Shown in pieces: positions 3,319-33,103 of a stretch of 36,602 bases of DNA; the first letter of the stretch is position 1, and each line of letters opens with the position of its first letter. Below the pieces are notes generated by a model, which had not been told where the DNA came from, ran no database searches, and saw nothing but the letters and a program-made list of their open reading frames with translations. The position numbers and the translations under genes are program-made. This DNA comes from Verrucomicrobiota bacterium (lineage in GTDB: Bacteria > Verrucomicrobiota > Verrucomicrobiia > Methylacidiphilales > CAMAQI01), in the NCBI GenBank assembly GCA_040388725.1, contig JAZKBH010000137.1, forward strand, positions 46,258 through 82,859. Reading direction: 5' to 3'.

Positions 3319-4152
3319 TTATCCCTTCACCGCTCCTGCGCTGAGCCCTTTCACAAAAAGTTTCATCGTAAAAAGAAAAATAAGAATAAGGGGAAACGAA
3401 GCAATCAGAAAAGCCCCCATGATTTTCCCCCAATCCTTCACATATTCTCCATCGAGATAGATCAGTCCAACCCCGATGGTAAAAAGATGATGATCTCTCA
3501 AAACAATAAGAGGCATCAGAAAATCATTCCACTGTCCTAAGAAAGCCAGAATAAAGAGCGTTCCTATAATCGACCCGCTCATCGGAATCACCACATGACG
3601 AATTTGAGCGAAATGCCCCGCACCATCCATCTCTGCGGCTTCAAAAAGATCTTTCGGGATCTCTTCGATAAAATTCCGAAGAATAAAAATATTAAAGACT
3701 TGTCCCCCTGCAATTCCGATAAGAATAAGGGCCCATAACGTATTTAATAATTTGAGCGATTTAAGAAGTTGGAAAAGAGGGACAATATTGGCCACGCTCG
3801 GGAGAAGCATCAAAAGCATGAGTACTCCCCAAAATAAACGACTCAAAGGCATGCGATATCGTGCAAAAAAATATCCCCCCATGATCGCCAATGCCAACGT
3901 ACAAAGAGTTCCCGTCACTGCCACGAGAACGGTATTCGCAATATAGGGAGCGATGAGCTTGAATCCAAAGATCCAATTTTCAAAATGGAGTTCTCTCCAA
4001 GAATTCGGAAACCACGGATTCTGCAAAAATTCTTCGTTCGTCTTCAAACTAATCTGCACCATCATATAGAGAGGAAAAAGCTCAATGCATAAAAGTCCCC
4101 CAATGGCGAAATGCTTGAGAAAATCACTTTTTTGCTTCCCCGAAGAATTCAT
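3319..4152 (-). CDS. carbohydrate ABC transporter permease (MalG/UgpE-like)
   Basis: Multi-pass membrane protein with the EAA loop EAAEMDGAGHFAQIRHVVIP. Its start overlaps the stop of the upstream permease by 4 nt. Confidence 0.9.
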   Translation of the reverse strand: MNSSGKQKSDFLKHFAIGGLLCIELFPLYMMVQISLKTNEEFLQNPWFPNSWRELHFENWIFGFKLIAPYIANTVLVAVTGTLCTLALAIMGGYFFARYRMPLSRLFWGVLMLLMLLPSVANIVPLFQLLKSLKLLNTLWALILIGIAGGQVFNIFILRNFIEEIPKDLFEAAEMDGAGHFAQIRHVVIPMSGSIIGTLFILAFLGQWNDFLMPLIVLRDHHLFTIGVGLIYLDGEYVKDWGKIMGAFLIASFPLILIFLFTMKLFVKGLSAGAVKG

Positions 4153-13798: not shown

Positions 13799-14056
13799 CT
13801 ACGCCATCGCATGCGTCAAAATCTCGACATGTGCCAGAATCTGATCCTCTTCTAAATGAAACCCATTTTCCAAGTGCCATTCCAGCGAATGCGCTTCGGG
13901 ATATTCCGCAAAATCAGCCACGTGTCCTTCCAATGCTTCTTTCATATGATGAAGTGTCTCTTCCACAGTCGCTCCAGCACTGACACACCCCACAATATCG
14001 GGAATAGCCGCGCAATAATTTTTCCCCGTATGTTCGATTACAACCAAATAATTCAT
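13799..14056 (-). CDS. hicB: HicB-family antitoxin
   Basis: MNYLVVIEHTGKNYCAAIPDIVGCVSAGATVEETL is the classic HicB N-terminal fold. 4-nt overlap with the upstream hicA. Confidence 0.85.
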   Translation of the reverse strand: MNYLVVIEHTGKNYCAAIPDIVGCVSAGATVEETLHHMKEALEGHVADFAEYPEAHSLEWHLENGFHLEEDQILAHVEILTHAMA

Positions 14057-14253
14057 GAGAGTCCTCCTTGTTTTAGAATGCTCTTCAAAATAAACCCCGA
14101 AAATTCTACTTTCTTTCCGTGGAAGGGTACAGTGACTTTTCCAGGTTTTGTCGGATGTTTAAAATGATAGTGGCTTCCCGTCACTCCCGCTTTTCTCCAT
14201 CCATCATCCTCTAACATTCTCACAATTTCTAAAAAAGTCATCACCCGTTTCAT
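14053..14253 (-). CDS. hicA: HicA-family mRNA-interferase toxin
   Basis: LEDDGW...GSHYHFKHPTKPGKVTVPFHG...ILKSILKQGGL is a HicA signature. The start is probably the ATG at 14253 or 14241; the track ORF start at 14310 runs into a repeat arm. Confidence 0.85.
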   Translation of the reverse strand: MKRVMTFLEIVRMLEDDGWRKAGVTGSHYHFKHPTKPGKVTVPFHGKKVEFSGFILKSILKQGGLS

Positions 14254-14302
14254 TCTCTGCCAGTGGGAGTTAACCACTCCCTCGACAAGAGAGAAAAAGA
14301 GA

Positions 14303-14470
14303 TTAACCACAGAGGCCGCCGAGTTGCGCGGAGGAATACCGGAATTTATTGAACATGGATGGAAAACCGATCTTTTGATCGTTCGTCTCCTTCCCTGGAA
14401 AGCTCGATACCTTGTTGAATATAATGGTCTTTCGTATTCCTCTGCGCAACTCGGCGGCCTTTGCGGTTAA
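14303..14470. repeat. long imperfect palindrome, type 1 (TTAACC.CAGAGG... arms)
   Basis: Arms 14303-14339 and 14434-14470 are complementary at 34 of 37 positions, with a 94-nt spacer. TTAA at both termini. Confidence 0.9.
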
Positions 14471-14517
14471 TCTCTTCGACTTTTTCCTCCTCATCCTCTA
14501 TCCTCCCCAACTCTTCC

Positions 14518-16389
14518 ATGTTTACTTATCCGAAAATTTACGATGTCATTGTCATTGGTGCAGGTCATGCAGGCGTCGAAGCCGCGCTCGCGGCTGCCCG
14601 TATGGGAGCACAGACCTTATTGCTCACAATGAATTGTGACACGATCGGACAAATGTCCTGTAATCCTGCGATCGGTGGACTCGCGAAAGGCCATCTCGTC
14701 CGTGAAATCGACGCTCTCGGGGGAGAGATGGGAGTGAATACGGATGCGACGGGAATTCAATTCCGCATGCTCAATGCTTCCAAAGGCCCCAGTGTTCGTG
14801 GCCCACGCGCTCAATGTGATAAAAAAGCTTACCAATTTCGCATTAAATATACTTGTGAGCGTCAGCCCAATCTCGATGTCAAACAAGGCCAAATCGCCGA
14901 TCTATTAACGGAAAATGATGTCATTCAAGGAGTTACAACGAATTTAGGCGTGCACTATCGAGCAAAATCGGTCGTCGTTACGACTGGAACCTTTCTTCGC
15001 GGTCTTTTGCATGTGGGCCTTCAAAATCAGGCCGGCGGCCGTATGGGTGATAGTGCCAGTGGTTTTTCCGATTGTTTAAAACGACTTGGCTTCGAGGTCG
15101 AACGTCTCAAAACAGGAACTCCACCCCGCCTTTTAAAACAAAGCATCAACTTTGAAGGCCTGGCCCTTCAACCCGGTGACTTCCCTCCTCCTGCTTTTTC
15201 TTACATGGTCCATACCCTTAAAAAGGGTCCTGACGAGCTTTTCACCTTAAATCACTATCAAGACGGAAAGTTCCACGTGGAACAAATCCCTTGTTGGGTG
15301 ACCTATACCTCTTCCAAAACGCACGATATTATCCGAGCGAACCTGGATAAGTCTCCGATGTACTGCGGGATAATCGAAGGAGTCGGTCCTCGTTATTGCC
15401 CCTCGATCGAAGATAAGGTCGTTAAGTTTGCCGACAAAGACCGCCATCAACTTTTCCTCGAACCTGAAGGCCGGCATACCGACGAGATCTATCTCCAAGG
15501 CTGTTCAACTTCCCTTCCTTTTGAAGTTCAGTATGAATTCATTCGCTCGATCGAAGGCCTCGAAAATGCCGAGATCATGCGGCCTGGATATGCCGTCGAA
15601 TATGACTTCTGTCATCCGACCCAACTTTTCCCCACCCTTCAAACGAAAAAGATCCAAGGTCTTTACTTTGCAGGTCAAATTAACGGAACCTCCGGATACG
15701 AAGAAGCCGCCGCTCAAGGTCTCATGGCCGGAATCAATGCCGCTCTTCAAGTCCAAGGAAAACCGGAATTGGTCCTCGGGCGTCATGAAGCCTATATCGG
15801 CGTTTTAATCGATGATCTTGTGACAAAGGGAACTCAAGAGCCCTATCGAATGTTTACGTCGCGCGCCGAATATCGCCTCCTTCTTCGCCAGGACAATGCC
15901 GATCAGCGTTTAACCGAAAAAGGACATGCCATCGGACTGGCAACCCCGGAACGCTACGCTCATTTTCAACAAAAAATGGCCACGATTGATTCGGTCCGCA
16001 CCCAAATACAATCGACCAAAATCATCCACGACCGCCTTTCCGATCTCCTTCGACGTCCGACTTTTTTCTGGAAAGATCTTCCTCCCGAATTTCAAAGCGT
16101 GGAAGAAGAGGTCGCGATCCAACTCGAGACCGAGTTTAAGTATTCCGGCTACATCGCCCGTGAAATGGCTCAGATTGAGAAAATGAAATCCTCCGAAGAG
16201 AAGGGGATTCCCGATTGGCTTGACTACGACACGATCCCTGGACTCAAAAAAGAAGCCCGCCTCAAATTAAAACAAATCCGACCTCGTACCTTTGGTCAGG
16301 CCGGTCGTATCAGCGGAGTTAATCCCAGCGATCTCAGCCTCGTCATGGTCTGGACACAACGGGGACCGCAAACAGAAAATTCGATTTAA
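14518..16389 (+). CDS. mnmG: tRNA uridine 5-carboxymethylaminomethyl modification enzyme MnmG (GidA)
   Basis: FAD motif YDVIVIGAGHAGVEAALAAARMG, with GidA-type blocks along the full length. The ATG at 14518 is preferred over the TTG at 14461, which lies inside a repeat arm. Confidence 0.95.
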   Translation: MFTYPKIYDVIVIGAGHAGVEAALAAARMGAQTLLLTMNCDTIGQMSCNPAIGGLAKGHLVREIDALGGEMGVNTDATGIQFRMLNASKGPSVRGPRAQCDKKAYQFRIKYTCERQPNLDVKQGQIADLLTENDVIQGVTTNLGVHYRAKSVVVTTGTFLRGLLHVGLQNQAGGRMGDSASGFSDCLKRLGFEVERLKTGTPPRLLKQSINFEGLALQPGDFPPPAFSYMVHTLKKGPDELFTLNHYQDGKFHVEQIPCWVTYTSSKTHDIIRANLDKSPMYCGIIEGVGPRYCPSIEDKVVKFADKDRHQLFLEPEGRHTDEIYLQGCSTSLPFEVQYEFIRSIEGLENAEIMRPGYAVEYDFCHPTQLFPTLQTKKIQGLYFAGQINGTSGYEEAAAQGLMAGINAALQVQGKPELVLGRHEAYIGVLIDDLVTKGTQEPYRMFTSRAEYRLLLRQDNADQRLTEKGHAIGLATPERYAHFQQKMATIDSVRTQIQSTKIIHDRLSDLLRRPTFFWKDLPPEFQSVEEEVAIQLETEFKYSGYIAREMAQIEKMKSSEEKGIPDWLDYDTIPGLKKEARLKLKQIRPRTFGQAGRISGVNPSDLSLVMVWTQRGPQTENSI

Positions 16390-16504
16390 ACCACCAAGTT
16401 AAATTCAAAGGACAGGCAAAGGAAAACATCTTTTGCTAGTGGTTTTAAAACAAATATCTTCGAAGCTTCTTTGTTTTTCCTGGGTGGTTCAATTCACTGC
16501 ATTT
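16387..16504. repeat. imperfect palindromic element, type 5 (AACCACCAAG... / ...CTGGGTGGTTCAATTCAC)
   Basis: The left arm overlaps the mnmG stop codon. aaccaccaag (16389-16398) pairs with cctgggtggtt (16479-16489). The loop carries ggttttaaaacaaa. Related arms occur at 17315-17340, 22088-22119 and 22645-22683. Confidence 0.6.
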
Positions 16505-16611
16505 GATCTGCAGACCAGATTTGACGACTTTCTCTCCGACTTCTATTGAAATGTAATGGTTATACCTTCCCCTTACTTGATTTTCAAAAAAACATATGTA
16601 TGATCATCTGT

Positions 16612-16845
16612 ATGCGCACAACTCTGGTGATCGATGATCCTATTTTTATGAAAGCCAAGAAATTCGCTTTGGAACATGGGGTGACGTTAGGAGCATTAAC
16701 CTCTCAGGCGCTTCAAGAACATATACAAAGACATCTCGAACCTCGACGCACTGAAAAATTTTTAATGCCTCTTTTCGGAGGATCAACGCACGTCGCTCAT
16801 TCTCCTCAAGAAATTGCTCAATTTCGTGACGAAGGGCGTTCGTGA
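16612..16845 (+). CDS. vapB: VapB-type antitoxin (type II)
   Basis: Starts MRTTLVIDDPIFMKAKKFALEHGVTLGAL, as in DUF2191/VapB-like antitoxins. Overlaps the start of the downstream PIN toxin. Confidence 0.75.
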   Translation: MRTTLVIDDPIFMKAKKFALEHGVTLGALTSQALQEHIQRHLEPRRTEKFLMPLFGGSTHVAHSPQEIAQFRDEGRS

Positions 16846-17291
16846 TCATCCCGGATGTTAATCTCTGGATCTATGCCCATCGCCAAGAAGATCCCGCTCA
16901 TTCATTTTATCGAAATTGGATTGAAATAATCCTGAATGGAGATGAACCGGTCGGACTCTCTTCTTTAACTGCAACGGCATTTGTCCGGATTGTCACACAT
17001 CCGAATTTCCCTCCTCTTCCAACACCACTTCGCCAAGCAATCGGAGTCATCGATGATCTCAAAAACTTTTATAACTGCCGTTGGCTTCTCCCAGGGCAAG
17101 ATCATTGGCAAATCACCAAAATGCTTTGCGAAAAAACAACCTCGATCGGAAAACATGTCGCCGATGCGCAGCATGCAGCGATCGCCATAGAATACCATGC
17201 TACATTCGTAACACGTGATCGGGATTTTCTAAAATTCAAGCCTCATGGCCTTCACGTCGAAATTCTGGAGCCGCCATATTCCACCCCCTAA
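16842..17291 (+). CDS. vapC: VapC PIN-domain toxin
   Basis: MIIPDVNLWIYA...ADAQHAAIAIEYHATFVTRDRDF carries PIN acidic-residue contexts. GTG start overlaps the vapB stop. Confidence 0.85.
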   Translation: MIIPDVNLWIYAHRQEDPAHSFYRNWIEIILNGDEPVGLSSLTATAFVRIVTHPNFPPLPTPLRQAIGVIDDLKNFYNCRWLLPGQDHWQITKMLCEKTTSIGKHVADAQHAAIAIEYHATFVTRDRDFLKFKPHGLHVEILEPPYSTP

Positions 17292-17314
17292 AAGCCCTCT
17301 GAAATCCTTCCTTT

Positions 17315-17340
17315 CGTTGGTGGTTCACTTCACTGCATTT
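17315..17340 (+). repeat. solo type-5 right arm; direct repeat of 16479-16504
   Basis: 17319-17340 (ggtggttcacttcactgcattt) matches 16483-16504 at 21 of 22 positions. Confidence 0.85.
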
Positions 17341-17785
17341 ATAGCGGCCGTTCAAATCGATACCGCCGCTCGGATTCTAAAATCGGAATATCATTAATCG
17401 AAGCATCGCGACGGCTCATCAAACCCGTCGAATCGAATTCCCACTGCTCATTTCCATGGGAGCGATACCATTGCTGCTTTTCATCATGCCATTCGTATTC
17501 GAAGCGGACGGAAATCCGGTTATCCGTAAAAGCCCATAATTCCTTCATCAACCGATAGTCCGTCTCGACCGCCCATTTTCGTTTTAAAAATTCCACCACG
17601 GCAACTCGGCCGACTAAAAATTCGGATCGATTTCGCCAATGCGTCTCCTCCGTATAAGCCATCGCCACACGCAGGGGATCACGGGTATTCCACGCCATCT
17701 CCGCCGCTTTAACTTTTTTAAGCGCCGTTTCATGGGTAAAGGGAGGACGAATGGCCGTCGGATTCGGAATAAAAATTTCAGGCAT
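17339..17785 (-). CDS. DUF1348-family (NTF2/SnoaL-like) protein
   Basis: [24 protein letters not shown]...HWRNRSEF...[10 protein letters not shown]...[11 protein letters not shown]...[10 protein letters not shown] matches the DUF1348 pattern along its whole length. Confidence 0.85.
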
Positions 17786-17827
17786 AAAAATCCTTTACAA
17801 AACGATCGTTTGGTTATCAAGGAAAAA

Positions 17828-18041
17828 CAATTTTCACACAGTCCCTGTGTGATAACGCAAAGTCTAATAGGTACCCATTTGGAGAGCCGAGGGGAGGCAA
17901 CTAGGACAGCAGTTACGTAGAGTCACAAAGAGGTCCAAGTCTCCACCCAAAATTCAATGCAGGTTTTGATCGGAAAATTAAACTTCCTTCGGATCTGAAG
18001 GGGAGAAACTTGGGCTGCTTCGCGACTTTGCGTGAAAATTG
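17828..18041. repeat. imperfect palindrome with TTTTCAC termini
   Basis: caattttcac...gcaaagtc (17828-17864, interrupted by a 7-bp-stem hairpin cacacag/ctgtgtg) is complementary to gactttgcgtgaaaattg (18024-18041). Confidence 0.6.
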
Positions 18042-18049
18042 TTTTAGGT

Positions 18050-18601
18050 TTAACTCTTCTTCCACTCCGCAATACGCTTCTTTAATAAACCTTTCCCTTG
18101 AAGCCGCTCCAATAAAAGAAGTCCCTGCACCTCAGCCACCATCGATTTTGCCCGCGCCATTGATTCCCTTTTCGAAATCTTTTTTCTCTCCAATCCCTTG
18201 GCCAACGCCTTTTCCCAATTTGAAAAATACCGCTGACAGGCTTTCAATAAAACCGGATGTGAAAGTCCGACTTCTAAGGTCAGATTCCCCGGAAGACACC
18301 CTCCTTCACGCTCCGTGAAATAAACCAATGTTGCCTCCCAGGCTTGAATCCACGCTTTTTCGATCGATCCATGCGAATCCAATAGAGGGGCAAAAACCTT
18401 TCGTTCAAACCACTCTTCGACCCACTTCACCGCTTCAATGGCCAATTCATCTTTGTTTTTAAAATAATGATAAAGACTCCCCTTCAATAATCCGGTCGCC
18501 TCTCCCAAATCGGCCATCGAGGTCTGATGAAATCCTCGGGTCTTAAAACAATGAACCGCAGCTTGAAGGATCGTATCACGATCGGTTTTTTGAATGGGCA
18601 T
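18050..18601 (-). CDS. TetR/AcrR-family transcriptional regulator
   Basis: N-terminal HTH: ILQAAVHCFKTRGFHQTSMADLGEATGLLKGSLYHYFKNKDEL. Confidence 0.9.
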   Translation of the reverse strand: MPIQKTDRDTILQAAVHCFKTRGFHQTSMADLGEATGLLKGSLYHYFKNKDELAIEAVKWVEEWFERKVFAPLLDSHGSIEKAWIQAWEATLVYFTEREGGCLPGNLTLEVGLSHPVLLKACQRYFSNWEKALAKGLERKKISKRESMARAKSMVAEVQGLLLLERLQGKGLLKKRIAEWKKS

Positions 18602-18660
18602 AACGTGATGTTTAGGAATTCCGAAAAAATAACAAGGGGGAAAACAAAAACCTAAATTTA

Positions 18661-18850
18661 CATGGTGCCGAATCCGTTGGGAACGGATGAGACGATCGAG
18701 TGAATACGAGAGGCTGCAGGAGGCAGCCAGAGTGAGGTGGCACCGAACGAATCATCATGGAATTAGAGAATTACTCCAGATGTCACGGCCAGAGAAAAAT
18801 GAGAAATACACAAATTTACATGGATTTAAAAGGCAGATACAAAGGATAAA
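18661..18850 (+). repeat. TA-associated ~190-nt conserved non-coding element, copy A (candidate structured RNA or small mobile insertion)
   Basis: Aligns by eye with 25213-25405 and the reverse complement of 26901-27095. The ~127-nt core starts catggtgccgaatccgttgggaacggatgagacgatcgagtg. 1-nt indels and an in-frame TGA argue against coding. Confidence 0.85.
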
Positions 18851-18947
18851 ATTAAAAAAGGGGGTTATGGTAAAAACCTATTCTCTCCGATCCCTTTGTG
18901 AAATGATTTCCATCCCTTGTATCGGCCATTTTTATCCATGTAAATTT
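18812..18947. repeat. long imperfect palindrome, type 2 (AAATTTACATGGAT... arms); the left arm is the tail of element copy A
   Basis: The arm from 18812 (40 nt, ending 1 nt beyond my copy A boundary) and the reverse complement of 18907-18947 agree at 33 of 40 positions. 56-nt spacer, T-rich flanks. Lies just past the vapC-2 stop, so it could act as a bidirectional terminator. Confidence 0.8.
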
Positions 18948-18953
18948 TTGCCT

Positions 18954-19394
18954 TTAAATACCCCCAACCAAAAACTCCACGATCTCCTCTCCTTCAGGAA
19001 GTGGAATGCTCTTCAATTTCAGATCAAAAGTTAAAAGCTTCAATTGATGCTCTTGGCAAATCCCGAGCAAATACGCATCGCTCAGTTGTTGATGGCTCAC
19101 CAATATCGAAACAAAAGGCTCAACCACTTCTGGAAATGACCTCTTTTCCAGGATGATTTGGTGCCGGGGATCTTCCATGTTTTTTTGTAGAAGCTCGGTC
19201 GATTGAGCAAGCGAAAGCGGTTGGAAAAAGACTTTCGGATTTGTACTAATTCGGAGAAACCCCGCCTGCGTCAAATGCACCGTTGCCCACGCATGAGCTC
19301 CCTTTTTCAAATACCACGCCTTGAATGTCGAATGAAAAGGATGCTGCGGAATAAATGCCGCCAAAAGAACATTCACATCATAAAGATAAGTCAT
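18954..19394 (-). CDS. vapC: VapC PIN-domain toxin (second copy, divergent from the first)
   Basis: MTYLYDVNVLLAA...LSDAYLLGICQEHQLKLLTFD is PIN-domain organisation. The upstream antitoxin's stop is directly adjacent to this gene's ATG. Confidence 0.8.
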   Translation of the reverse strand: MTYLYDVNVLLAAFIPQHPFHSTFKAWYLKKGAHAWATVHLTQAGFLRISTNPKVFFQPLSLAQSTELLQKNMEDPRHQIILEKRSFPEVVEPFVSILVSHQQLSDAYLLGICQEHQLKLLTFDLKLKSIPLPEGEEIVEFLVGGI

Positions 19395-19619
19395 CTAACC
19401 CTCTTCCTTAAATTCACGAACAGCCTTACTCAACGCAAGAGGATCTGCCAAAGCCAATTCCACCATATGAAACGGATAATCGTCCGATGGAGATTGGGTT
19501 GGATAAAATTTAGGCCGCGCCATCTCGGAAAGAGCCTTCCCTAACGAAATCCCCTTCAATTGCGCCAAATTCTGTGCCGCCTGAAAAACATCTTCATCCA
19601 AATTCACCGTCGTTCTCAT
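19395..19619 (-). CDS. vapB: VapB-type antitoxin
   Basis: MRTTVNLDEDVFQAAQNLAQLKGISLGKALSEM parallels the 16612 antitoxin N-terminus. The ATG at 19619 is preferred over the longer track ORF. Confidence 0.75.
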   Translation of the reverse strand: MRTTVNLDEDVFQAAQNLAQLKGISLGKALSEMARPKFYPTQSPSDDYPFHMVELALADPLALSKAVREFKEEG

Positions 19620-19727
19620 GAAATAAGGATAATATGATGTATTGATGTCGTCAACATCATGATGCATACCTCTCATACATATTAAGTAGTGGAGACGGGG
19701 CTAAACGACAAGGGGATATCAAAAAAT

Positions 19728-19843
19728 ATTTCACATGGATTAAAAATGCCGATCCAAGCGATAAAATCAAAAGTCATTATTTTGCGTTTTAAGAAATAAA
19801 TAGTTTTCTATCCCTTGTATCAGCATTTCCATCCTGTGAAATT
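19728..19843. repeat. imperfect palindrome, type 2
   Basis: atttcacatggattaaaaatgccgatccaagcgataaaa versus the reverse complement of tctatcccttgtatcagcatttccatcctgtgaaat, about 75% complementary. The loop contains ttgcgttttaagaaa. Confidence 0.75.
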
Positions 19844-19857
19844 AATGCCTTTAGGTC

Positions 19858-20565
19858 TTACGCATGCACCTCTAACTCCGCCTCACTTTTCACGACCTTC
19901 AACATCTTTCCATCCACCATCTGCCCGATTCGATCCGCATAATGGTAAATCCGATTATCATGCGTGACCACAATCACACATCGGTCTTGGGATTGAGCAA
20001 CCGCGGCCAACAACTCTGTAATTTTAGCTCCGGTCGATCCATCCAACGCGGAGGTCGGTTCATCACAAATAATGAGCCGCGGATCGTGGACTAATGCCCG
20101 CGCAATCGCCACCCGTTGTTGTTGTCCGCCCGAAAGTAATGCGGGATATTCATTGAACTTCGTCTCCAATCCCACCGTCGAGAGCATCTCTTTCCCACGG
20201 ACGACGGCCTTTGAGTATGACATCCCATTAATAAGAAGGGGGACGATCGCATTATCCAAACAAGTTAAGGTCGGGATGAGATTAAATTGCTGAAAAATGA
20301 ACCCGATGTTTTTCTTCCGAAACTCCGTCACTTTCCCACTACTCATTTCATGCAGGGGATTTCCAAAAACATTGACCTCACCCGTATCCCCTTTGAGAGT
20401 TCCAGCGATGATACTCAACAACGTCGTCTTTCCGCAACCTGAGGGCCCGACGATCATAAAAAATTCTCCGGATTGAATCTCTAAATCAATCCCCTTCAGC
20501 GCCATCGTCTTCGCTTCACCCTTCCCGAAAGACTTCTCCAAACCCCGTACTATCACAGCACTCAT
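19858..20565 (-). CDS. ABC transporter ATP-binding protein (LolD/MacB/FtsE type), no permease partner in the window
   Basis: Walker A GPSGCGKTT, signature LSGGQQQRVAIARAL, Walker B LIICDEPTSALD. ATG at 20565 (MSAVIVRG...). Confidence 0.9.
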   Translation of the reverse strand: MSAVIVRGLEKSFGKGEAKTMALKGIDLEIQSGEFFMIVGPSGCGKTTLLSIIAGTLKGDTGEVNVFGNPLHEMSSGKVTEFRKKNIGFIFQQFNLIPTLTCLDNAIVPLLINGMSYSKAVVRGKEMLSTVGLETKFNEYPALLSGGQQQRVAIARALVHDPRLIICDEPTSALDGSTGAKITELLAAVAQSQDRCVIVVTHDNRIYHYADRIGQMVDGKMLKVVKSEAELEVHA

Positions 20566-20589
20566 TCCAGGCACCCAAAACCAAAGATC

Positions 20590-20696
20590 TTAACCGCAGA
20601 GGCCGCTAAGGAACGCTGAGGAATACCCACTTTATTTTGTTTTTTAAAACCAGCAATGCATTTACCTTTGCGCTTCTCTGCGTCCTCTGCGGTTAA
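20590..20696. repeat. imperfect palindrome, type 1
   Basis: The left arm 20590-20626 is homologous to 14303-14339. The right arm 20670-20696 matches 25456-25482 at 26 of 27 positions. The loop has ttgttttttaaaacca. TTAA at both termini. Confidence 0.85.
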
Positions 20697-20707
20697 CAAG
20701 TATTTAC

Positions 20708-21928
20708 TCATACCTCAACCAGACACCGCTCCTTCAACCAAGCCTCCTGGGCAGCCGCATCTTTCACATTTTGGCGACTGATCTCTTTGATAAAATTTTC
20801 GAAATGTTCATGACCGGTTAAAATTTCAATTTCCACGCGAAGGAAGTAAATGGGCACCAAGGATTGCTCCATGCGGGGAATCCGCACTGCATCTTTCTCG
20901 GTCGTAATAATCGCTTTCGCCCCGCGATTTCGTGAGCGAGTCATCAATGATTGCAATTCATCTTCCGAAAACCGATGGTGATCCTCATACGCACGAGAAT
21001 AGATGATGTCTGCTCCGAGTTTTTTCAATCCCGCTTCAAAACTCTCGGGACGGGCAATCCCTGAAAGCGCACTGATTTTCAACTCTTTCAAAAACTCCAA
21101 AGGCATCTGCTCATCATTCGCTACATTCTGCAAATGCAACGCTTGATGCCGACATTCGATCATCGGCGCATGGATATTCAATTCACGGAGTTGCTTTTTT
21201 AAATCGTCGATCGGCGTCCCATCGCACTTCGTAATCACAATCAAATTGGCGCGCTTTAAATGATCGATCGGCTCCCGTAAAGTTCCTCGCGGCAAAAGAT
21301 GTCCGTTTCCAAAAGGGGTCTCACGGTCGACTAAAACAATATCATATCGCTCTTTCAGCGTCAGATATTGAAAGCCATCATCCAAAATCAAGGTATCCGA
21401 GCCAAACTTCTCAATCGCAAACTTTCCGCATTTCACGCGGTTCTTATCCACGACGACAGAAACCCCATCACAATTATGGGCGAGCATGAACGGTTCATCT
21501 CCAGCAAAACGCGAATCCAGAAAAAGGGTTTTCCCATCTGAAACCAAACGCGGAGGATATTCATGTTGTTCTGTAAAAATTCTCGCTTTCATCCGATCCC
21601 ACAGCGGTCGCTTCTGACTTTTATAACCTCTGCTTAAAATCGAAACTTTTCGTCCTGCTTTTGTGAGTTCCTTCGCAATCTTCTCCACCCAAGGCGTCTT
21701 TCCCGTTCCGCCCACGGTCAGATTTCCTACACTGATCACTTGGCAGCCCAAAGAATAAACCGCGAGTCTCCGATTCTCATACCACCGGAGCCGGATGCGC
21801 ATAATGCGACGATACAAAATTGAGAGCCCATGCAAAAACGTCCGGAGCAACGCGGCGCGTTTGCCGTAGCGTCGATCCATAATCACATCGACCGCAAATT
21901 GTTCCAATCGTTCTAAAGGTTTAGGCAT
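20708..21928 (-). CDS. lpxK: tetraacyldisaccharide 4'-kinase LpxK
   Basis: P-loop [22 protein letters not shown], then LSRGYK and DDGFQ blocks typical of LpxK. Longer C-terminus than the E. coli enzyme. Confidence 0.9.
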
Positions 21929-21973
21929 CTCACCTCACCCTAAACTTCCTAGAAGCCGATTCAAACCAAAAAC

Positions 21974-22087
21974 ATATTCACACGAAGGTCACAGAGTAAG
22001 CCGAGGAAAATCCATCCATTCAAATGCTTTGGTATTGAAAACAAAAACGGTCTTTCTCCGTTTCCTCCGATACCTCCGTGTAAAAAT
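21974..22087. repeat. imperfect palindrome, type 3 (TTCACACGRAGG... / ...CCTCCGTGTAAAAAT)
   Basis: Arms 21974-22010 and 22051-22087 are complementary at 26 of 37 positions. The loop has ttgaaaacaaaaacgg. Confidence 0.7.
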
Positions 22088-22119
22088 CTCCTTGGTTTCC
22101 CTTGGCGGTTCAATTTGTG
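22088..22119 (+). repeat. solo type-5 right arm
   Basis: ctccttggtttcccttggcggttcaatttgtg parallels 16470-16500 and 17303-17335. Confidence 0.55.
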
Positions 22120-22148
22120 TTTTTTGAATTTCAAACTAGGCTATTCTT

Positions 22149-22484
22149 ATGATCCAAAGCCTCACCGCCGCGGCCAGCGCCCTTCAGGTCAATTCGACCC
22201 GTCTTGATGTCCATGCGAACAACATCGCGAACCTCAATACCCCCGGCTTTCAGGCACAAATCGCCGACCAAGAGACGGCACCCGGAGGAGGGGTTCAAAT
22301 CAGTAAAATTTCTTCATCCACTGCACCCGGTTCCCCAACGGATTCTGAAAATCCCTCTGAAACCAATAACGTCGACCTCGTGACAGAAACCATCGGCTCC
22401 ATGATCGCCCTCCGCGCCTTCGAAGCCAACGCGAAGTCGATCCAAACCACCGACGAAATGCTGAAAACGCTCACGAAGATTTAA
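22149..22484 (+). CDS. flgC: short flagellar basal-body rod protein, FlgC-like (111 aa), orphan
   Basis: N-terminal rod motif LDVHANNIANLNTPGF and C-terminal NVDLVTETIGSMIALRAFEANAKSIQTTDEMLKTL align with both ends of FlgC. No other flagellar genes nearby. Confidence 0.55.
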   Translation: MIQSLTAAASALQVNSTRLDVHANNIANLNTPGFQAQIADQETAPGGGVQISKISSSTAPGSPTDSENPSETNNVDLVTETIGSMIALRAFEANAKSIQTTDEMLKTLTKI

Positions 22485-22491
22485 AAATTCA

Positions 22492-22594
22492 GTGTCTCGC
22501 ACAACGGCACGACGACCCCACGAAAATTCAGTATTGGTTAAAAACAAAAAGAAATTGTTCTTCCCGTCGCGTCGTAGTGCCGTTGTGCGAAACA
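22492..22594. repeat. imperfect palindrome, type 4 (GTGTCTCGCACAACGGCAC arms)
   Basis: 22493-22516 and the reverse complement of 22566-22594 agree at 22 of 24 aligned positions. The loop has ggttaaaaacaaaaag. Same arm family as 28040-28173. Confidence 0.85.
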
Positions 22595-22600
22595 AATGCC

Positions 22601-22636
22601 TTTTCTCCGTTTCCTCCGTTTCCTCCGCTTCCTCCG
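22601..22636 (+). repeat. four tandem 9-bp repeats (ttttctccg tttcctccg tttcctccg cttcctccg) forming a solo type-3 right arm
   Basis: Read directly from the sequence. Followed by tgtgaaaaatc as in the other type-3 arms (22051-22087, 27106-27140). Confidence 0.85.
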
Positions 22637-22644
22637 TGTGAAAA

Positions 22645-22683
22645 ATCTTCGTCTTCCTTTGCCTTAACTTGGCGGTAAAACCC
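22645..22683 (-). repeat. type-5 left arm in inverted orientation
   Basis: The reverse complement ttttaccgccaagttaaggcaaaggaagacgaag aligns with 16385-16430 (tttaaaccaccaagttaa...ggcaaaggaaaaca). Confidence 0.6.
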
Positions 22684-22693
22684 TTGTCTTTTT

Positions 22694-23998
22694 TTACTGC
22701 AAAATACTTTTCAACCGATGATCCCACAAATGCTCACGAGCCGTCCGCATCTTCGCCTTCGCCCCATTGGCTAGAGCTTCTTCCGGATTCGCTAAAAGCG
22801 CACGGGTCTTGATTTCTAATTCTTCCAGCGTATCTCCCACCGCAATTTCCGGTTCGGGATAACAACTAATCACATCGGGACTTCGTAAATTCACCGAGAC
22901 TCGACCCGAGGCTGCAATTTCAAAAAGCTTTTCATTTCCCGTCGCATCACGAAGCGGGTTGGCACCATTTAAATGCACGGCGTATTTTTGATAATATTCC
23001 GGTAACTCACCCAGATTGATATTTCTCCCGGCTTTGACCCCATACGGAAGCCATTCCGATTCATTCGAATAAACATCGACCAATCCTTGCTCATAAAGTC
23101 GCATCACCAGAGCGGGACGATCATAGCGCGTCACTAATTTCACCAGCATGCAAAAATCGAGAAGGATATTGTTGTCATTCGCAAACGCAAAGGCCTTCGG
23201 ATAAACTTCCCCTGCCATCTTGAGCAATTGCAAAGAAGGGGAAAAAGGATTCGTCGCCTTCACTTCCATCGCCACCGCTAAGAGTTCACGCGTCTGTGGT
23301 TCGAGACGAAACCACTTTTGGATCGCTTCATCCCCTGCCCGCAATAAATGATCCCGACTCATTCGACGCAATTCAATCAAGTCCGCTCCCGACTTCATTA
23401 ATTCAATCGCATCTTTATGCGGCTCGCCGCGAAAACCGGGATTGCCGATAAAGACCGCCTTATCCTTGATCTCGCACGGAAATTTTTGCTTTAAAAACTC
23501 CGCAGGAGCCGCCAACCGAGACGTCATCTGTCGCTCCACCCCAAAAAGCCGTGCCTCTTGAGCCATGCTCTCTCCATAAAAAATATGGCGCACTTTTTCA
23601 TGACGGATAATCGACTGAAATCCCATCTCGCGACTGGAAAACCAGACATTCGTCGGATAGGTGATCCAGCTCCGGAAATCATCAAACCAGATTGAAGTAA
23701 TATCTTTCACTTGGGGTGAATCAAAAAATGGTTCCGGATAAAATAACCAAAAAAGATCAAGCCCGATCACCGTATCAATTTCCAAATCTTCTAAAAAATT
23801 ACTCCAATGAATCGCGAGTCGCTTCAACGGCTTTTCGAGCGATTTGTCTCCCAACATCGATTTCTGAATTCGAGCCGGAAAGGTATCCCGAACCACCGTT
23901 CGATGTCCTAAGCGTTCACAAGCCGATGCCATGAACTCCGTCGTCTTGGCAAACGGAACCGAGTGATCATTTGAAAGAAAAAGGATTTTCCGTTTCAT
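22694..23998 (-). CDS. CgeB-like / group-1-type glycosyltransferase-family protein
   Basis: C-terminal region (NEKLFEIAASGRVSV...LEELEIKTRALLANPEE...REHLWDHRLKSIL) resembles the CgeB-type GT1 C-terminal domain. Paralogous to the upstream gene. Confidence 0.55.
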   Translation of the reverse strand: MKRKILFLSNDHSVPFAKTTEFMASACERLGHRTVVRDTFPARIQKSMLGDKSLEKPLKRLAIHWSNFLEDLEIDTVIGLDLFWLFYPEPFFDSPQVKDITSIWFDDFRSWITYPTNVWFSSREMGFQSIIRHEKVRHIFYGESMAQEARLFGVERQMTSRLAAPAEFLKQKFPCEIKDKAVFIGNPGFRGEPHKDAIELMKSGADLIELRRMSRDHLLRAGDEAIQKWFRLEPQTRELLAVAMEVKATNPFSPSLQLLKMAGEVYPKAFAFANDNNILLDFCMLVKLVTRYDRPALVMRLYEQGLVDVYSNESEWLPYGVKAGRNINLGELPEYYQKYAVHLNGANPLRDATGNEKLFEIAASGRVSVNLRSPDVISCYPEPEIAVGDTLEELEIKTRALLANPEEALANGAKAKMRTAREHLWDHRLKSILQ

Positions 23999-25104
23999 GC
24001 CTTCTCCTCAAGAATGGCCTTCAACCGATGTTCCCATAGCCCCTCATTCTCCACCATGATTTGATCTTTTCGAGCAAGCATATGCCATTCATCAGAATGA
24101 TTCTGAAAATCTGCACGTACCGTCTCCCAATGCTCATCTCCCGATACAACAACCACCCCTTGCCAAGGCCCCACATAAATTTCAGGCGAGAGAAGAATCG
24201 GCACCGATCCCATTGCCATCGTTTCGGGAATCCGTTCATACGGAGGACCTAATAAAGCAGGACTCATGAGATGCAATTGAGCGCGATATCGAGAGAGGAT
24301 AATATTCTTCTCATACGGATCCAACTCGGGACGCGCCGTGATTCCATAATCTTCCAACCCACAAACGGCTCCATAAATATCAAGGTCTTCGCGTCCCGTA
24401 TAAAGATACCAAAGATTCTGAAACGGGATCACGTCTCGCTCAGGCAATTTTTCAAAAGGAGCCAAAAATTCCTGCTTCGATTTACACGACTGAAGGCGCT
24501 TCAAACATTCCGGATCAAAACCCGGGAGATAAGAAGGATCCAACTCACAGGCAATTTTCCCAATCTGCTTCGGACTCGGATCAAGATCGACAAACTCCCG
24601 AGGCGCGCCGGGAGGCAAAAATGACCAGGTCATTCCCGGAAGGATTTGCAGCGTGTCCTGCATATAAAAATGACGGCACTTCTCATGCATGAGTGGTGCA
24701 TGCCACGGTCCGAGCTGGAGTTGATCCCATTCCCAAAAACGTAAAATATCCTTTAACGGATGAAACCAAAGATGATGAATCCACTTTGGTTTGGCCTCTC
24801 GGAGAAAAATATCAGGAACAAGAAGACTGGAAGCATCGAGAGAAATCACATGATCGATCTCAAACCCATAAAGCATCCGCATGAGTTGATCGACCAACGC
24901 ATAACGGGAAAGCTGTCGCTCTTCCTCATCCTCTTCTTTGAGCGTCTCAAAAGCATCCCAAAGACAGGAGACATCCCGTGCCACCACATGGACCCCGATT
25001 CGATCCCCTGCCTCGTATAAAAAACGAGAAAGCTTGCGATGCCGGGGAAACCGATCATCCCCCAACAAGAGTACATTCTGAATACGGGCCGACACGCTTA
25101 CCAT
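23995..25104 (-). CDS. CgeB-like glycosyltransferase-family paralog
   Basis: Shares blocks with the 22694-23998 product: LLLGDD/LFLSND, EIDHVISLD/EIDTVIGLD, HEKCRHFY/HEKVRHIFY, LWEHRLKAIL/LWDHRLKSIL. ATGA overlap between the two genes. Confidence 0.5.
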   Translation of the reverse strand: MVSVSARIQNVLLLGDDRFPRHRKLSRFLYEAGDRIGVHVVARDVSCLWDAFETLKEEDEEERQLSRYALVDQLMRMLYGFEIDHVISLDASSLLVPDIFLREAKPKWIHHLWFHPLKDILRFWEWDQLQLGPWHAPLMHEKCRHFYMQDTLQILPGMTWSFLPPGAPREFVDLDPSPKQIGKIACELDPSYLPGFDPECLKRLQSCKSKQEFLAPFEKLPERDVIPFQNLWYLYTGREDLDIYGAVCGLEDYGITARPELDPYEKNIILSRYRAQLHLMSPALLGPPYERIPETMAMGSVPILLSPEIYVGPWQGVVVVSGDEHWETVRADFQNHSDEWHMLARKDQIMVENEGLWEHRLKAILEEKA

Positions 25105-25147
25105 CCTAGACTGTTTCTCCCCACGGCTTCAATACAAAGAAACATGA

Positions 25148-25482
25148 TTTACCGCAGAGGCGCAGAGGAGATTCAAGGGAATGTCAGAGGCAGGTGAAAA
25201 GAAATTATTTAACATGGTGCCGAATCCGTTGGGAACGGATGAGACGATCGAGTGAATACGAGAGAGCAGCAGGACGCAGCCAGAGTGAGGTGGGCACCGA
25301 ACGAATCATCCTGGAGTTAGAGAATTACCCCGGATGTCATAGCGGAGAAAAATAAGGCAAAGGCAAAATTTATATGAATATAAAAAGGCAGATACAAGGG
25401 ATAGGACAAAAGGCATTGTTCTTTGTTTTAAGAAGTTAGAAATTGTTTTCCTCAGCGCTTCTCTGCGTCCTCTGCAGTTAAA
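25148..25482. repeat. type-1 palindrome whose loop contains element copy B (nested)
   Basis: The left arm tttaccgcagaggcgcagaggag... (25148-25181) pairs with the right arm ttcctcagcgcttctctgcgtcctctgcagttaaa (25448-25482). The loop motif tttgttttaagaag is retained 3' of the insert. Confidence 0.75.
25213..25405 (+). repeat. TA-associated ~190-nt element, copy B
   Basis: Same core as copy A, with about 8 differences in the first ~127 nt by manual alignment. Lies 90 nt from the mazF stop codon. Confidence 0.85.
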
Positions 25483-25494
25483 TCGCCTTTACTC

Positions 25495-25830
25495 TTATGC
25501 CGATCCATACATTTCCACCACCAACTCTCTTAAAAGCTGCGCCCCATTCGGTTTCAAACGATCGATCTTTTTTACCAATCGACTTTTATTCACCGTCCGA
25601 ATCTGATCCACTGCGATATCTGCTTCACGAACTCCACATCGAATCCTCAAACGGCATCTCCAATCCTCCCGAAGCTGACTGGTGATTGGACAAATGACCA
25701 CCGTCTTCAAACATTGATTCCGCATATCATCACTAATTACCACACACGGTCTCGTCTTTCCGATCTCACTTCCCTCTATAGGATCAAGTCGGACAAGATA
25801 GATCTCATAACGCTTAGGAGCGGAGATCAT
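25495..25830 (-). CDS. mazF: MazF/PemK-family endoribonuclease toxin
   Basis: YEIYLVRLDPIEGSEIGKTRPCVVISDD...ICPITS...VDQIRTVNKSRL is the canonical PemK/MazF pattern. Confidence 0.9.
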   Translation of the reverse strand: MISAPKRYEIYLVRLDPIEGSEIGKTRPCVVISDDMRNQCLKTVVICPITSQLREDWRCRLRIRCGVREADIAVDQIRTVNKSRLVKKIDRLKPNGAQLLRELVVEMYGSA

Positions 25831-26117
25831 TTTGCCCTCGATTTCTTTCCCTCATCCCACGGAAGTTCCTCCAACCCATCCTCATCCGTTACAGACCAAT
25901 CCGATTCCACCGCTTCATCCTTTGCCATCGCTTTATACGTCTCTTTCCACGAAAGTTTCGACGTCATCGGCTTTGCGGGACGAAGAACAAGACGATCTTC
26001 AAGGGCTTCCACCAGAATTCCTCCTTCTAATCCATACTTCTCGATCACCGCCTGCGGGACTCGAATTCCCCTTGAATTTCCGATCGCCGTCAGTTTGCAT
26101 TCCAAAAAAGGCTTCAT
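25827..26117 (-). CDS. mazE: MazE-type antitoxin (SpoVT/AbrB domain)
   Basis: KLTAIGNSRGIRVPQAVIEKYGL is the AbrB-like swapped-hairpin motif. ATGA overlap with mazF. The ATG at 26117 is preferred over the longer track ORF. Confidence 0.85.
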   Translation of the reverse strand: MKPFLECKLTAIGNSRGIRVPQAVIEKYGLEGGILVEALEDRLVLRPAKPMTSKLSWKETYKAMAKDEAVESDWSVTDEDGLEELPWDEGKKSRAK

Positions 26118-26364
26118 GTAATTACAGTAATTCCTTTTTGAAAGCGTGTCAAATCCAGGCAGTCTCTTTGAGATCTTGATCATCTTCCTTCAGTAGTCGT
26201 CATCCTTTAAAACGACAAGAGCCAGAGGGAAAAAGATGCATGAATGAAAATGCATTTTACAGTTCAAATACCTTCCTTCGTTCTCCTTTGTTAGAAATTC
26301 TGTTTTGTATTTCCTACGTGTGCGCACTTTGTCGCGAGTTCTACTATCGACTACCAGGAGAAGG

Positions 26365-26679
26365 ATGGATTATGAAATCAACATCGAACTTCAAGCGTTC
26401 GATGATTTGAAGTTGTTTTTAGAGAATGCAGACTACGAACCCCCAGCAGTGCGACATGTTCAAAAGATTTTCCGACAAACACAGCTCTTAAGTCGATTTC
26501 CAAAAACAGGTTCTAAAATATTCGCCCAATCCAAACAAGTCACCGCTCGAAAAAAATGGGCGCATCCTTTCTGGATCATCTACACCATCGACGAAAAAAA
26601 ATCCTTTATTCAAATTATCGAGTATCGACACCACGCAAAGCACCTCGGGAGGAGTCTTTTTTCTGACCCTTCTGGATAA
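26365..26679 (+). CDS. parE: ParE/RelE-family toxin, no upstream antitoxin gene
   Basis: YEINIELQAFDDLKLFLE...LSRFPKTGSKI...HPFWIIYTIDEKKSFIQIIEYRHHAK fits the ParE pattern. ATG at 26365 is preceded by aggagaagg. Confidence 0.75.
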   Translation: MDYEINIELQAFDDLKLFLENADYEPPAVRHVQKIFRQTQLLSRFPKTGSKIFAQSKQVTARKKWAHPFWIIYTIDEKKSFIQIIEYRHHAKHLGRSLFSDPSG

Positions 26680-26812
26680 GCTCTGTTATTTTCCCTTGAA
26701 ATTGATCCAATGAAAGTCCGCTCGTTTCCGTCACGTTCCCCAAACGCCTCTCCAACTCCAAAACATCCGAAAGGGACGCTCTATCAACAGGTTTAAAACG
26801 TGCATTGGACAT
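26615..26812 (-). CDS. hypothetical 65-aa ORF convergent with parE and overlapping its 3' end (possible unconventional antitoxin or non-coding)
   Basis: Only the open frame MSNARFKPVDRASLSDVLELERRLGNV... supports it. The gagg motif sits too close to the ATG, and I recognise no family. Confidence 0.25.
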   Translation of the reverse strand: MSNARFKPVDRASLSDVLELERRLGNVTETSGLSLDQFQGKITELIQKGQKKDSSRGALRGVDTR

Positions 26813-26900
26813 GCCTCTACATTAGTCAATCACCCGTAAGTCGTCAAAACAGGATTCCCACAAACTAAAATAAGAGACTTATAGTTTGTTAGAAACTAGG

Positions 26901-27095
26901 CTTTATCCCTTGTATCTGCATTTTTTATATCCATGTAAATTTTGCATGGGCTTTATTTTTCTCTGATTGTGACATCTGGAGTAATTCTCTAACTCCATAA
27001 TGATTCGTTCGGCGCCCACCTCACTCTGGCTGCGTCCTGCAGCCTCTCGTATGCACTCGATCGTCTCATCCGTTCCCAACGGATTCGGCACCATG
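26901..27095 (-). repeat. TA-associated ~190-nt element, copy C (inverted relative to A and B)
   Basis: The reverse complement matches copies A and B, with about 6 and 9 differences in the core. Lies downstream of parE. Confidence 0.85.
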
Positions 27096-27105
27096 TTAAA
27101 ATTGT

Positions 27106-27155
27106 ATTCTTCCGCTACCTCCGTTCACTCCGTGTGAAATTGCCTTTCGCCTTTA
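27106..27155 (+). repeat. solo type-3 right arm abutting element copy C
   Basis: attcttccgctacctccgttcactccgtgtgaaattgcctttcgccttta parallels 22051-22100 and 22599-22660. Confidence 0.65.
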
Positions 27156-32636: not shown

Positions 32637-33103
32637 AAAAACCTTTGTTAAGACTTGAAGGGAATAAACTAAATAAAGGCGAAGGGAGAATGAATCGCAA
32701 TCACTTCCCTCATTCATAATCGCTCAAATTTTATTCTAAAACACTCTTATGATGAGCGACATTCGAATCAATCTGAATCTTATATAGAATTTCAAGGGAG
32801 CAATTCTCCTCATCAGTCGAATAGACCTCAACTTAAGGGGAAATACAGGATTTGCATCGATAATAGGATGGGGGGATAAATAAAATTTAAATAGGAAAAG
32901 CGAGAAAAAAGGTAAAAGAGACTGATTTTTTAATCAGCGATGGGTTGTGCCTTTTTAAGAATTTTATCCTCTGGATCCGGATATCGATGCCAAAGTTTTC
33001 TTTATTTTCTCGATCCTCTCTTTTGCATTTGATGAGCGATTTTGAATAGTGAGTGAGCACTCCCCATCTTGTGTGAAAGGAGAGATATGATAAATTTAAA
33101 ATA

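Follow-up and report, generated by a model that had tools for sequence, protein, structure and literature searches.

The window analysed here, a stretch of 36,602 nucleotides (nt) on contig JAZKBH010000137.1 of the Verrucomicrobiota bacterium assembly GCA_040388725.1, contains five type II toxin–antitoxin (TA) modules. They are crowded into 13 kb (13799-26679) between mnmG/gidA and dnaN and are interleaved with core genes, namely lpxK and those for an ABC ATPase and for glycosyltransferases. Beside three of the modules we have identified three copies (A, B and C) of a non-coding composite repeat of about 200-250 nt, which consists of a head, a core and an arm; the arm also occurs alone. An earlier, sequence-only reading of this DNA had named vapC-2, mazF and parE as the toxin genes next to the repeat. 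Pfam agrees with these assignments, the ParE match being weak and below the cut-off; parD has no Pfam match. The modules and their genes are as follows:

13799-14310: hicAB (Pfam)
16546-17291: vapBC-1 (Pfam)
18954-19676, minus strand: vapBC-2, bracketed by pairs of arms
18954-19394, minus strand: vapC-2, PIN domain (Pfam)
19395-19676, minus strand: vapB-2, weak VapB_antitoxin match below the Pfam cut-off
25495-26183, minus strand: mazEF, with a PemK_toxin match (Pfam) in mazF and a weak MazE_antitoxin match below the cut-off
25495-25830, minus strand: mazF, PemK (Pfam)
26240-26679, plus strand: parDE, enclosed together with mazEF by the inverted copies B and C
26305-26679, plus strand: parE, weak ParE_toxin match (E = 1e-3) below the Pfam cut-off

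Composite copies and cassette-bounding arms

Copies A (18645-18855, plus strand), B (25194-25411, plus strand) and C (26892-27113, minus strand) were recovered by MAFFT alignment, by a repeat finder and by nhmmer, in agreement with the three copies reported before. A profile built from the three copies gave exactly three full nhmmer matches in the window, with E values of 1e-56 to 1e-74; all copy numbers given for core, arm and composite are counts within these 36.6 kb. The parts of the composites and the arms that lie apart from them are:

18654-18665, plus strand: left direct repeat of copy A, AAATTTACATGG, matching 18812-18823 at 12/12 positions; outer part of the interrupted arm
18666-18811, plus strand: core of copy A, starting with TGCCGAATCC; cmsearch 113 bits
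18809-18852, plus strand: arm of copy A, AAATTTACATGGATTTAAAAGGCAGATACAAAGGATA, the 'tail' of the sequence-only reading; E = 4e-10 with the nhmmer arm profile
18905-18965, minus strand: core-less arm, inverted partner of the copy A arm; nhmmer E = 1.7e-11
19721-19772, plus strand: core-less arm upstream of vapB-2; nhmmer E = 1.7e-10
19800-19851, minus strand: core-less arm, inverted partner of 19721-19772; nhmmer E = 1e-9
25206-25217, plus strand: head of copy B, TATTTAACATGG, a degenerate counterpart of the direct repeat
25218-25360, plus strand: core of copy B; cmsearch 110 bits
25361-25408, plus strand: arm of copy B; nhmmer E = 1.2e-9
26898-26945, minus strand: arm of copy C; nhmmer E = 1.5e-10
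26946-27090, minus strand: core of copy C, in which TGCCGAATCC begins at 27090; cmsearch 117 bits
27091-27102, minus strand: head of copy C, ATTTTAACATGG, an imperfect direct repeat with 26935-26945

Similarity among the copies is layered, being highest in the core, lower in the tail and lowest in the flank of the head. The first 125 nt of the core are 92-93% identical in pairwise comparison (9-10 differences), the next 23 nt 70-78%, the 43-nt tail 77-84% and the 48 nt upstream of the head 40-67%; outside these segments the copies compare as random sequence. Weak homology extends for about 30 nt upstream of the core. The heads of B and C have in common a derived extra A (TTTAACATGG) that is missing from their own tails, which argues that head and core were copied together.

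The single 190-nt element described before thus has real copies, which resolve into two nested non-coding repeats. Its 'looser tail' exists, as a separate repeat with three additional copies that have no core. Other details of that description hold: no reading frame is kept, with an in-frame TGA at codon 14 of A and B and 1-nt indels; the element lies about 104 (A), 90 (B) and 222 nt (C) from the toxin stop; and its tail end points towards the toxin stop in all three copies.

The arm is an AT-rich repeat of 45-60 nt with a G-rich start and an A-rich stretch followed by ATTTACATGGATATAAAAAGGCAGATACAAGGGATA; its best-conserved part is GCNGATACAAGGGAT. All six arms detected by nhmmer lie around TA cassettes and alternate in orientation, in the order + - [vapC-2 vapB-2] + - and + [mazF mazE parD parE] -, and half of them (3/6) have no core. 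Copies B and C are inverted around mazEF and parDE (inverted repeats I2 and I3). The arm of copy A forms inverted repeats I6 (44 nt, 82%) and I11 (30 nt, 73%) with the core-less arm at 18905-18965, which overlaps the final codons and the stop of vapC-2. No arm was detected beside vapBC-1 or hicAB with the nhmmer arm profile in the window, nor is there a core copy, as the sequence-only reading had stated for its element. The link with TA modules is tied to the arm alone and not to the core. The apparent rule of a fixed polarity at toxin 3' ends follows from the three copies being non-independent versions of a single composite and from the arms they occupy being turned towards the cassettes. The most striking conserved sequence is accordingly a rider in a shorter repeat, and it is the shorter repeat that delimits the TA cassettes. 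This arrangement suggests that the cassettes may be mobile.

Four Logan contigs from the same organism (L008 to L011, sample SRR26324622) are 100% identical to the window. Two of them, L008 and L009, stop inside the core, L008 at position 25281 within copy B; such breaks are expected at a repeat. L010 and L011 lie wholly inside the window, and exact look-ups with window proteins returned no Logan contig that reaches beyond it. Nested repeats of this sort break short-read assemblies of such genomes.

Structure, distribution and probable insertion of the core

The core is relatively GC-rich and about 125-146 nt long. Apart from A, B and C, a scan of metagenome contigs found it in two contigs only, L001 and L002. 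Its conserved block starts at the same base, TGCCGAATCC, in all five DNA copies, and the invariant 31-mer GTGCCGAATCCGTTGGGAACGGATGAGACGA is common to L001, L002 and the window copies. About 95 nt are recognisable as core between these contigs and the window (cmsearch 95-103 bits), with complete divergence beyond.

Two hairpins stand out. Hairpin 1, AUCCGUU-GGG-AACGGAU (7-3-7), is invariant. Hairpin 2, GCUGC-AGGAS-GCAGC (GCUGC-AGGAG-GCAGC in copy A), has one base pair that varies in a compensatory manner between C-G, G-C and U-A. A closing helix is present in each lineage in a different register; L001 and L002 use flank nucleotides for it, and the stem from flank to interior differs by lineage (GACUCGU/ACGAGUC in L001, GCAUCG/CGACGC in L002). 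Fold energy z-scores of -1 to -3 on either strand are modestly better than those of shuffled sequences, and G-U wobbles in a small 3-bp stem slightly favour the forward strand. The comparison of three or four lineages supports a hairpin that would be under selection in a single-stranded state, as RNA or as DNA. A hammerhead or other ribozyme motif was considered and rejected, the core having GGAUGAG and not CUGAUGA, with no Rfam match. Another observation concerns L002, where the 3' part of the element holds an inverted partial copy of its conserved 5' end (3669-3691 versus 3747-3775); CGTCTCATTCGG pairs there with CCGAAT...GAGACG to form a long helix, from which hairpin 1 branches off and which the window copies do not have.

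A further copy of the core is represented in translation by P0001 (MES2310366.1), a 44-amino-acid open reading frame (ORF) from another Verrucomicrobiota metagenome-assembled genome (MAG). It is 74% identical to the ORF of copy C, its residues IYMVP fit the head ATTTACATGG, and it is compatible with hairpin 2 in the form AUUGC/GCAAU. It was the one match obtained with the ORF of copy C as query, and again the sole match in an exhaustive HMMER profile search against 1.84 billion protein representatives; a concatenated six-frame pseudo-protein query returned nothing.

Rfam covariance models gave no match to the element over the whole window at the gathering score and nothing relevant at E ≤ 10 on the copies from the window, L001 and L002, in line with the earlier statement that it resembles no described RNA family. 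Blastn against plasmids and phages gave no match to the element, exact and degenerate pattern scans of GTDB species representative contigs and a pattern scan of viral contigs gave none either, and a literature string search with the hairpin sequence found no paper. The core belongs to a small, hitherto undescribed family that occurs in several uncultured Verrucomicrobiota and is marked by the covarying hairpin and by the very strong conservation of the 31-mer.

The ORFs scanned around the core include no TA gene in either contig. Those of L001, which is only 2.4 kb long, encode a GIY-YIG protein and proteins of unknown function, and those of L002 a PEP-CTERM protein and a 1235-amino-acid protein.

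In L001 the core (1248-1388) is flanked on both sides by a perfect 13-nt repeat, CGGCTAGGACTCG, at 1235-1247 and 1389-1401; a 13/13 repeat was reached by 0/300 shuffles. Its sequence belongs to a tRNA-Lys-like gene. With the Rfam tRNA model, a match of 36.5 bits to model positions 5-66 covers 1389-1454 and ends exactly at the element boundary. After removal of the core and one repeat, ARAGORN at default settings calls a tRNA-Lys(UUU), and it calls none in intact L001. As to the tRNA-Lys(UUU)-like gene itself (1389-1454, minus strand), its 5' acceptor end is mismatched and the core interrupts it near the 3' end. A small GIY-YIG nuclease gene (1449-1745, minus strand) immediately adjoins it, and the site may be a remnant of an integration site.

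A second insertion signature is found at copy A. Its 12-nt direct repeat extends to a 17/20 match, reached by 6/300 shuffles, and, across the insertion point, head flank and tail align in collinear order with the core-less inverted arm at 18905-18965 (as I11 and I6, respectively). The collinear, uninterrupted arm together with the 12-nt repeat is the signature of an insertion into an arm. The repeats of L001 (CGGCTAGGACTCG) and copy A (AAATTTACATGG) are unrelated in sequence, and the left flanks of the core differ (ATGG, CTCG, ATCG). At copy C the head matches 26935-26945 at 11/13 positions with a 2-nt gap, which is not significant alone.

Short direct repeats were also noticed around whole composites. 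The 9-nt AAAAACCTA flanks composite A (18646-18654/18872-18880, p about 0.02), and AGAAATT(A/G)TTT flanks composite B (25200-25210/25438-25448, 11 nt with one mismatch, p about 0.016). Both have their left boundary 11 nt before TGCC and non-homologous right ends; composite C has none.

Origin of the composite and competing readings

A passive miniature element working at the level of DNA, and not a TA-specific regulator, is the most likely identity of the composite. Specifically, we favour a miniature insertion module mobilised in trans that became nested in a cassette-bounding repeat, the resulting composite then being copied as a unit, an account to which we give an even chance of being correct. 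The core would insert with flanking duplications of 12-13 bp, as it may have done in the tRNA-Lys-like gene of L001 and in the arm repeat of this genome. Once it had landed in an arm of the second repeat, head, core and arm would have been copied together to produce A, B and C. The machinery for its mobilisation would have been supplied in trans, and the events may have followed one another in this order. The arms around vapBC-2 and mazEF-parDE would correspond to the terminal repeats with which a miniature element encloses its cargo, and the linkage to TA genes would be due to these arms, or to a tolerance of the spacers around TA modules for insertions, and not to a TA-specific RNA.

The element resembles miniature inverted-repeat transposable elements (MITEs) and nested miniature repeats in being small, with cores of 141-146 nt, non-coding, multi-copy (three copies in 36.6 kb) and intergenic, with direct duplications at its flanks, which are found as target-site duplications at L001 and copy A. 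Nesting is seen twice: the core is lodged in an arm, and a palindrome of another repeat family, described below, holds copy B in its loop. The inverted pair B...C enclosing mazEF and parDE recalls mobile insertion cassettes and composites of Tn3-derived inverted-repeat miniature elements (TIMEs), such as TIME-COMP1, which has inversely oriented TIMEs at both ends of its cargo (PMC4133298). Unlike MITEs, the core has no clear terminal inverted repeats and keeps only its 5' 95 nt between lineages: by eye, 5-7 of 10-13 positions match between TGCCGAATCC... and the ends ...GGCA, ...TGCA and ...TTGCC. The arms, in contrast to the core, do form inverted pairs (I6, I11). The duplications of 12-13 bp are longer than the 5-6 bp reported for TIMEs. 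No transposase gene lies in the window, and no clean duplication surrounds the whole TA island.

Tn3-derived TIMEs are recognised by 38-bp inverted repeats that start with GGGG and end with TAAG and by a 5-bp duplication. As a separate observation, the palindrome 18636-18965 that holds copy A starts with GGGGG (18636-18640), ends with CCCCC (18961-18965) and has the flanks AACAA/AACCA (4/5). In this it is reminiscent of Tn3-type miniature elements with their termini and 5-bp duplication, although it has no TAAG-type inner end. The second palindrome has no GGGG right end.

Several findings weigh against the favoured account. Clean flanking duplications are limited to two loci, L001 and copy A; they are degenerate in B and C, and L002 has none. 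Around B...C or the vapBC-2 island no clean target duplication was found, the 5-6-nt AT-rich matches there being at chance level. Neither a transposase nor an integrase or reverse transcriptase is encoded in the window, and the core has no convincing terminal inverted repeats. Conservation of only the 5' 95 nt between lineages is unlike DDE-type MITEs, and the conservation of the core above its flanks, together with the covariation, could reflect an RNA or single-stranded DNA function beyond mobility. The acceptor stem of the L001 tRNA is weak with or without the insert, and this gene may be a pseudogene. The reverse strand of the element is co-directional with both flanking genes in 5/5 loci, which the model does not explain.

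It is unlikely, but deserves to be taken seriously, that the arm, with or without core, is the site of a site-specific recombinase, like integron attC or Acinetobacter pdif, with the TA cassettes as recombination modules and the 12-13-nt direct repeats as attachment (att) cores and not target duplications. Integrase-mediated integration typically falls in the 3' part of a tRNA gene and is accompanied by a short direct repeat, and L001 presents this picture. The arms alternate in orientation and bracket the TA cassettes as pdif sites bound dif modules, and B and C are inverted around mazEF and parDE. The head ATTTAACATGG also resembles, at 9/11 positions, the reverse complement of what we take to be the XerD half-site ATTTAACATAA; the arm consensus AAATTTACATGGATATAAAAAGGCAGATACAAGGGATA has, by eye, only a one-sided likeness to such a half-site, with no inverted partner arm. 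In Acinetobacter, pdif (XerC/XerD) sites of inverse orientation delimit the dif modules, and TA genes are very often found in these modules (PMC13141974). The locus shares with them the TA cassettes between short alternating repeats and the small 'empty' intervals between adjacent repeats. It differs in being chromosomal, near the origin and in Verrucomicrobiota, and in its arms of 45-60 nt, whereas a pdif site has 28 bp with two 11-bp arms and a 6-bp spacer. No such partially palindromic 11-6-11 site of Xer type is present in the arm, nor is there evidence of Xer dependence. Moreover, the two direct repeats are unrelated, whereas one recombinase should need one core sequence.

Integron attC sites are conserved, imperfectly palindromic repeats of 120-190 nt located 3' of cassette ORFs; TA cassettes are enriched among these, and the single-strand hairpins of attC matter. 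The composite, a palindromic repeat 3' of ORFs beside TA cassettes, has a likeness to attC sites of chromosomal integrons (e.g., Vibrio VCRs). On reading the sequence, however, we found no R''/R' ends (RYYYAAC/GTTRRRY), with no GTTRRRY at either end of the palindrome; copy C runs in the opposite direction to A and B; neither an integrase nor an intI gene was found in the window; and the neighbours are core genes (lpxK, dnaN, mnmG), not a co-oriented cassette array. The earlier proposal of a mobilisation or recombination site stands in so far as the arm occurs only around TA cassettes and B and C are inverted around mazEF and parDE. It does not stand for the core, which behaves as an independent insertion riding in the arm, nor is it helped by the lack of a clean duplication of the island or of a recombinase or transposase. 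Should the arms be mobilisation or recombination sites, Verrucomicrobiota would have, on the chromosome, an equivalent of the miniature elements with cargo or of the dif modules that shuffle TA genes.

Unlike ends, hairpins kept by compensatory changes, which would be expected if they are recognised as single-stranded DNA, the absence of terminal inverted repeats and an intergenic position also recall IS200/IS605 palindrome-associated elements and REP/REPIN sequences. Elements of the IS200/IS605 type make no target duplication and insert beside a fixed tetra- or pentanucleotide, whereas here duplications and varied left flanks are seen; no Y1/HUH transposase gene lies in the window, and the orientation does not follow the replication direction. 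The element does not therefore qualify as one of them.

The sequence-only reading had offered as its other option a cis-antisense or 3'-end RNA acting on TA operons, that is, a structured RNA working on the adjacent module either as a 3' untranslated structure (reverse strand) or as a convergent antisense RNA (forward strand). Each of the three window copies is found just past the 3' end of a toxin gene, always in one polarity; with 4 toxin 3' spacers in a total of about 35, our post-hoc estimate of the chance of this is about 6e-4 for independent copies. Independence does not hold, however, given that the composite was copied as a unit. The conserved multi-hairpin fold with one covarying pair, the co-directional reverse strand (5/5 loci) and, for the forward strand, the G-U wobbles of the 3-bp stem also speak for such an RNA, but the z-scores reach only -1 to -3 and Rfam gave no match. 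Promoter- and terminator-like sites are not above shuffled expectation and are not conserved between copies, and TA association is not found throughout: vapBC-1 and hicAB have no element, and no TA gene was found near the cores of L001 and L002. We therefore do not retain this option and judge it distinctly improbable.

Still less probable, in our view, is that the core is a small RNA gene, or a leader or portable promoter for the downstream gene on the reverse strand, unrelated to the TA modules. It would account for the invariant core end facing, in 5/5 loci, a co-directional gene that starts at a distance of 60-290 nt, and for a core more conserved than its flanks. Copy C has a promoter-like site, TTCCCA-18-TAAAAT with a TG motif upstream, that straddles the junction between core and head and is directed outward (27073-27102, plus strand). 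Yet only 1/3 window copies passed the promoter scan, L001 lacks the -10-like hexamer, which is part of the variable head, and the downstream genes are unrelated (in the window those for a TetR protein, a glycosyltransferase-like protein and a 290-amino-acid protein). The flanking duplications and the tRNA disruption would be left unexplained. The promoter-like site of copy C points to the gene for the 290-amino-acid protein; the equivalents in A and B are weaker.

Equally low is the probability we assign to the 95-nt multi-hairpin domain being a functional single-stranded RNA or DNA that directs its own insertion into structured DNA, such as a tRNA T-arm or the arms of palindromic repeats, and leaves 12-13-bp duplications. 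It could be a module resembling a guide or a ribozyme, or could serve for recognition in a reverse-transcribed element similar to short interspersed elements (SINEs). The invariant 31-mer, the compensatory stems, conservation at one end, the A-rich 3' part and the lineage-specific flank stem would fit such a domain.

We give almost no credence to a decayed small protein-coding gene (MVPNPLGTDETIE...). Of the three window copies only C has its 63-amino-acid ORF intact, and P0001, at 74% identity, is annotated as an ORF of 44 amino acids. Stops or frameshifts occur in 4/5 DNA copies, the 31 invariant nt have no synonymous variation, and the differences fall as compensatory changes in stems. The ORF of copy C has no Pfam match, and the HMMER search finds P0001 alone.

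Further repeats and the surroundings of the window

Besides the composite and its arms, the window contains a second repeat family of palindromic pairs built on TTAACCGCAGAGGnCGCAGAGAAGCGC:

14297-14339/14434-14476: palindrome pair upstream of hicA
20590-20621/20665-20696: palindrome pair in the spacer between lpxK and the ABC transporter gene
25147-25172 (plus strand, TTACCGCAGAGGCGCAGAGGAG)/25446-25480: palindrome around copy B (D4 and I9 of the repeat finder)

Copy B sits in the loop of the last of these. Its position inside another palindrome indicates that nesting of small repeats is common in this genome.

A third type of repeat, with 9-nt periodicity and similar to CGGAGGAAA, is found at 22053-22086, 22602-22644 and 27107-27140, that is, in the interval from the glycosyltransferase genes to lpxK and immediately beyond the copy C head. 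A 30-nt inverted repeat (hairpin 22493-22522/22565-22594) lies near these repeats.

The window is located near the replication origin, with mnmG and dnaN within it and the minimum of the cumulative GC skew at about 31-33 kb. The sign of the skew changes between a GH115-like gene (29814-32717, minus strand) and a GFO/IDH/MocA oxidoreductase gene (33104, plus strand). The origin is probably near 32.7-33.1 kb, though dnaA lies outside the window. An orientation bias with respect to replication was considered and dropped, since A, B and C all lie on one side of the skew minimum, yet C is inverted. A tRNA gene was looked for in the window and none was found.

The source organism is an uncultured member of the Verrucomicrobiota. 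The closest DnaN proteins are 85-93% identical, and those of Verrucomicrobiota and Methylacidiphilales MAGs 61-71%. In the loci of dnaN relatives (L003-L007) both the element and synteny are absent; the gene order in one of them, L003, is dnaA, PhzF, dnaN.

Inside the GH115-like gene, which encodes 967 amino acids, a 57-nt direct repeat (29870-29926/30407-30463) is 82% identical between its two copies, 537 nt apart, and is probably an internal domain duplication.

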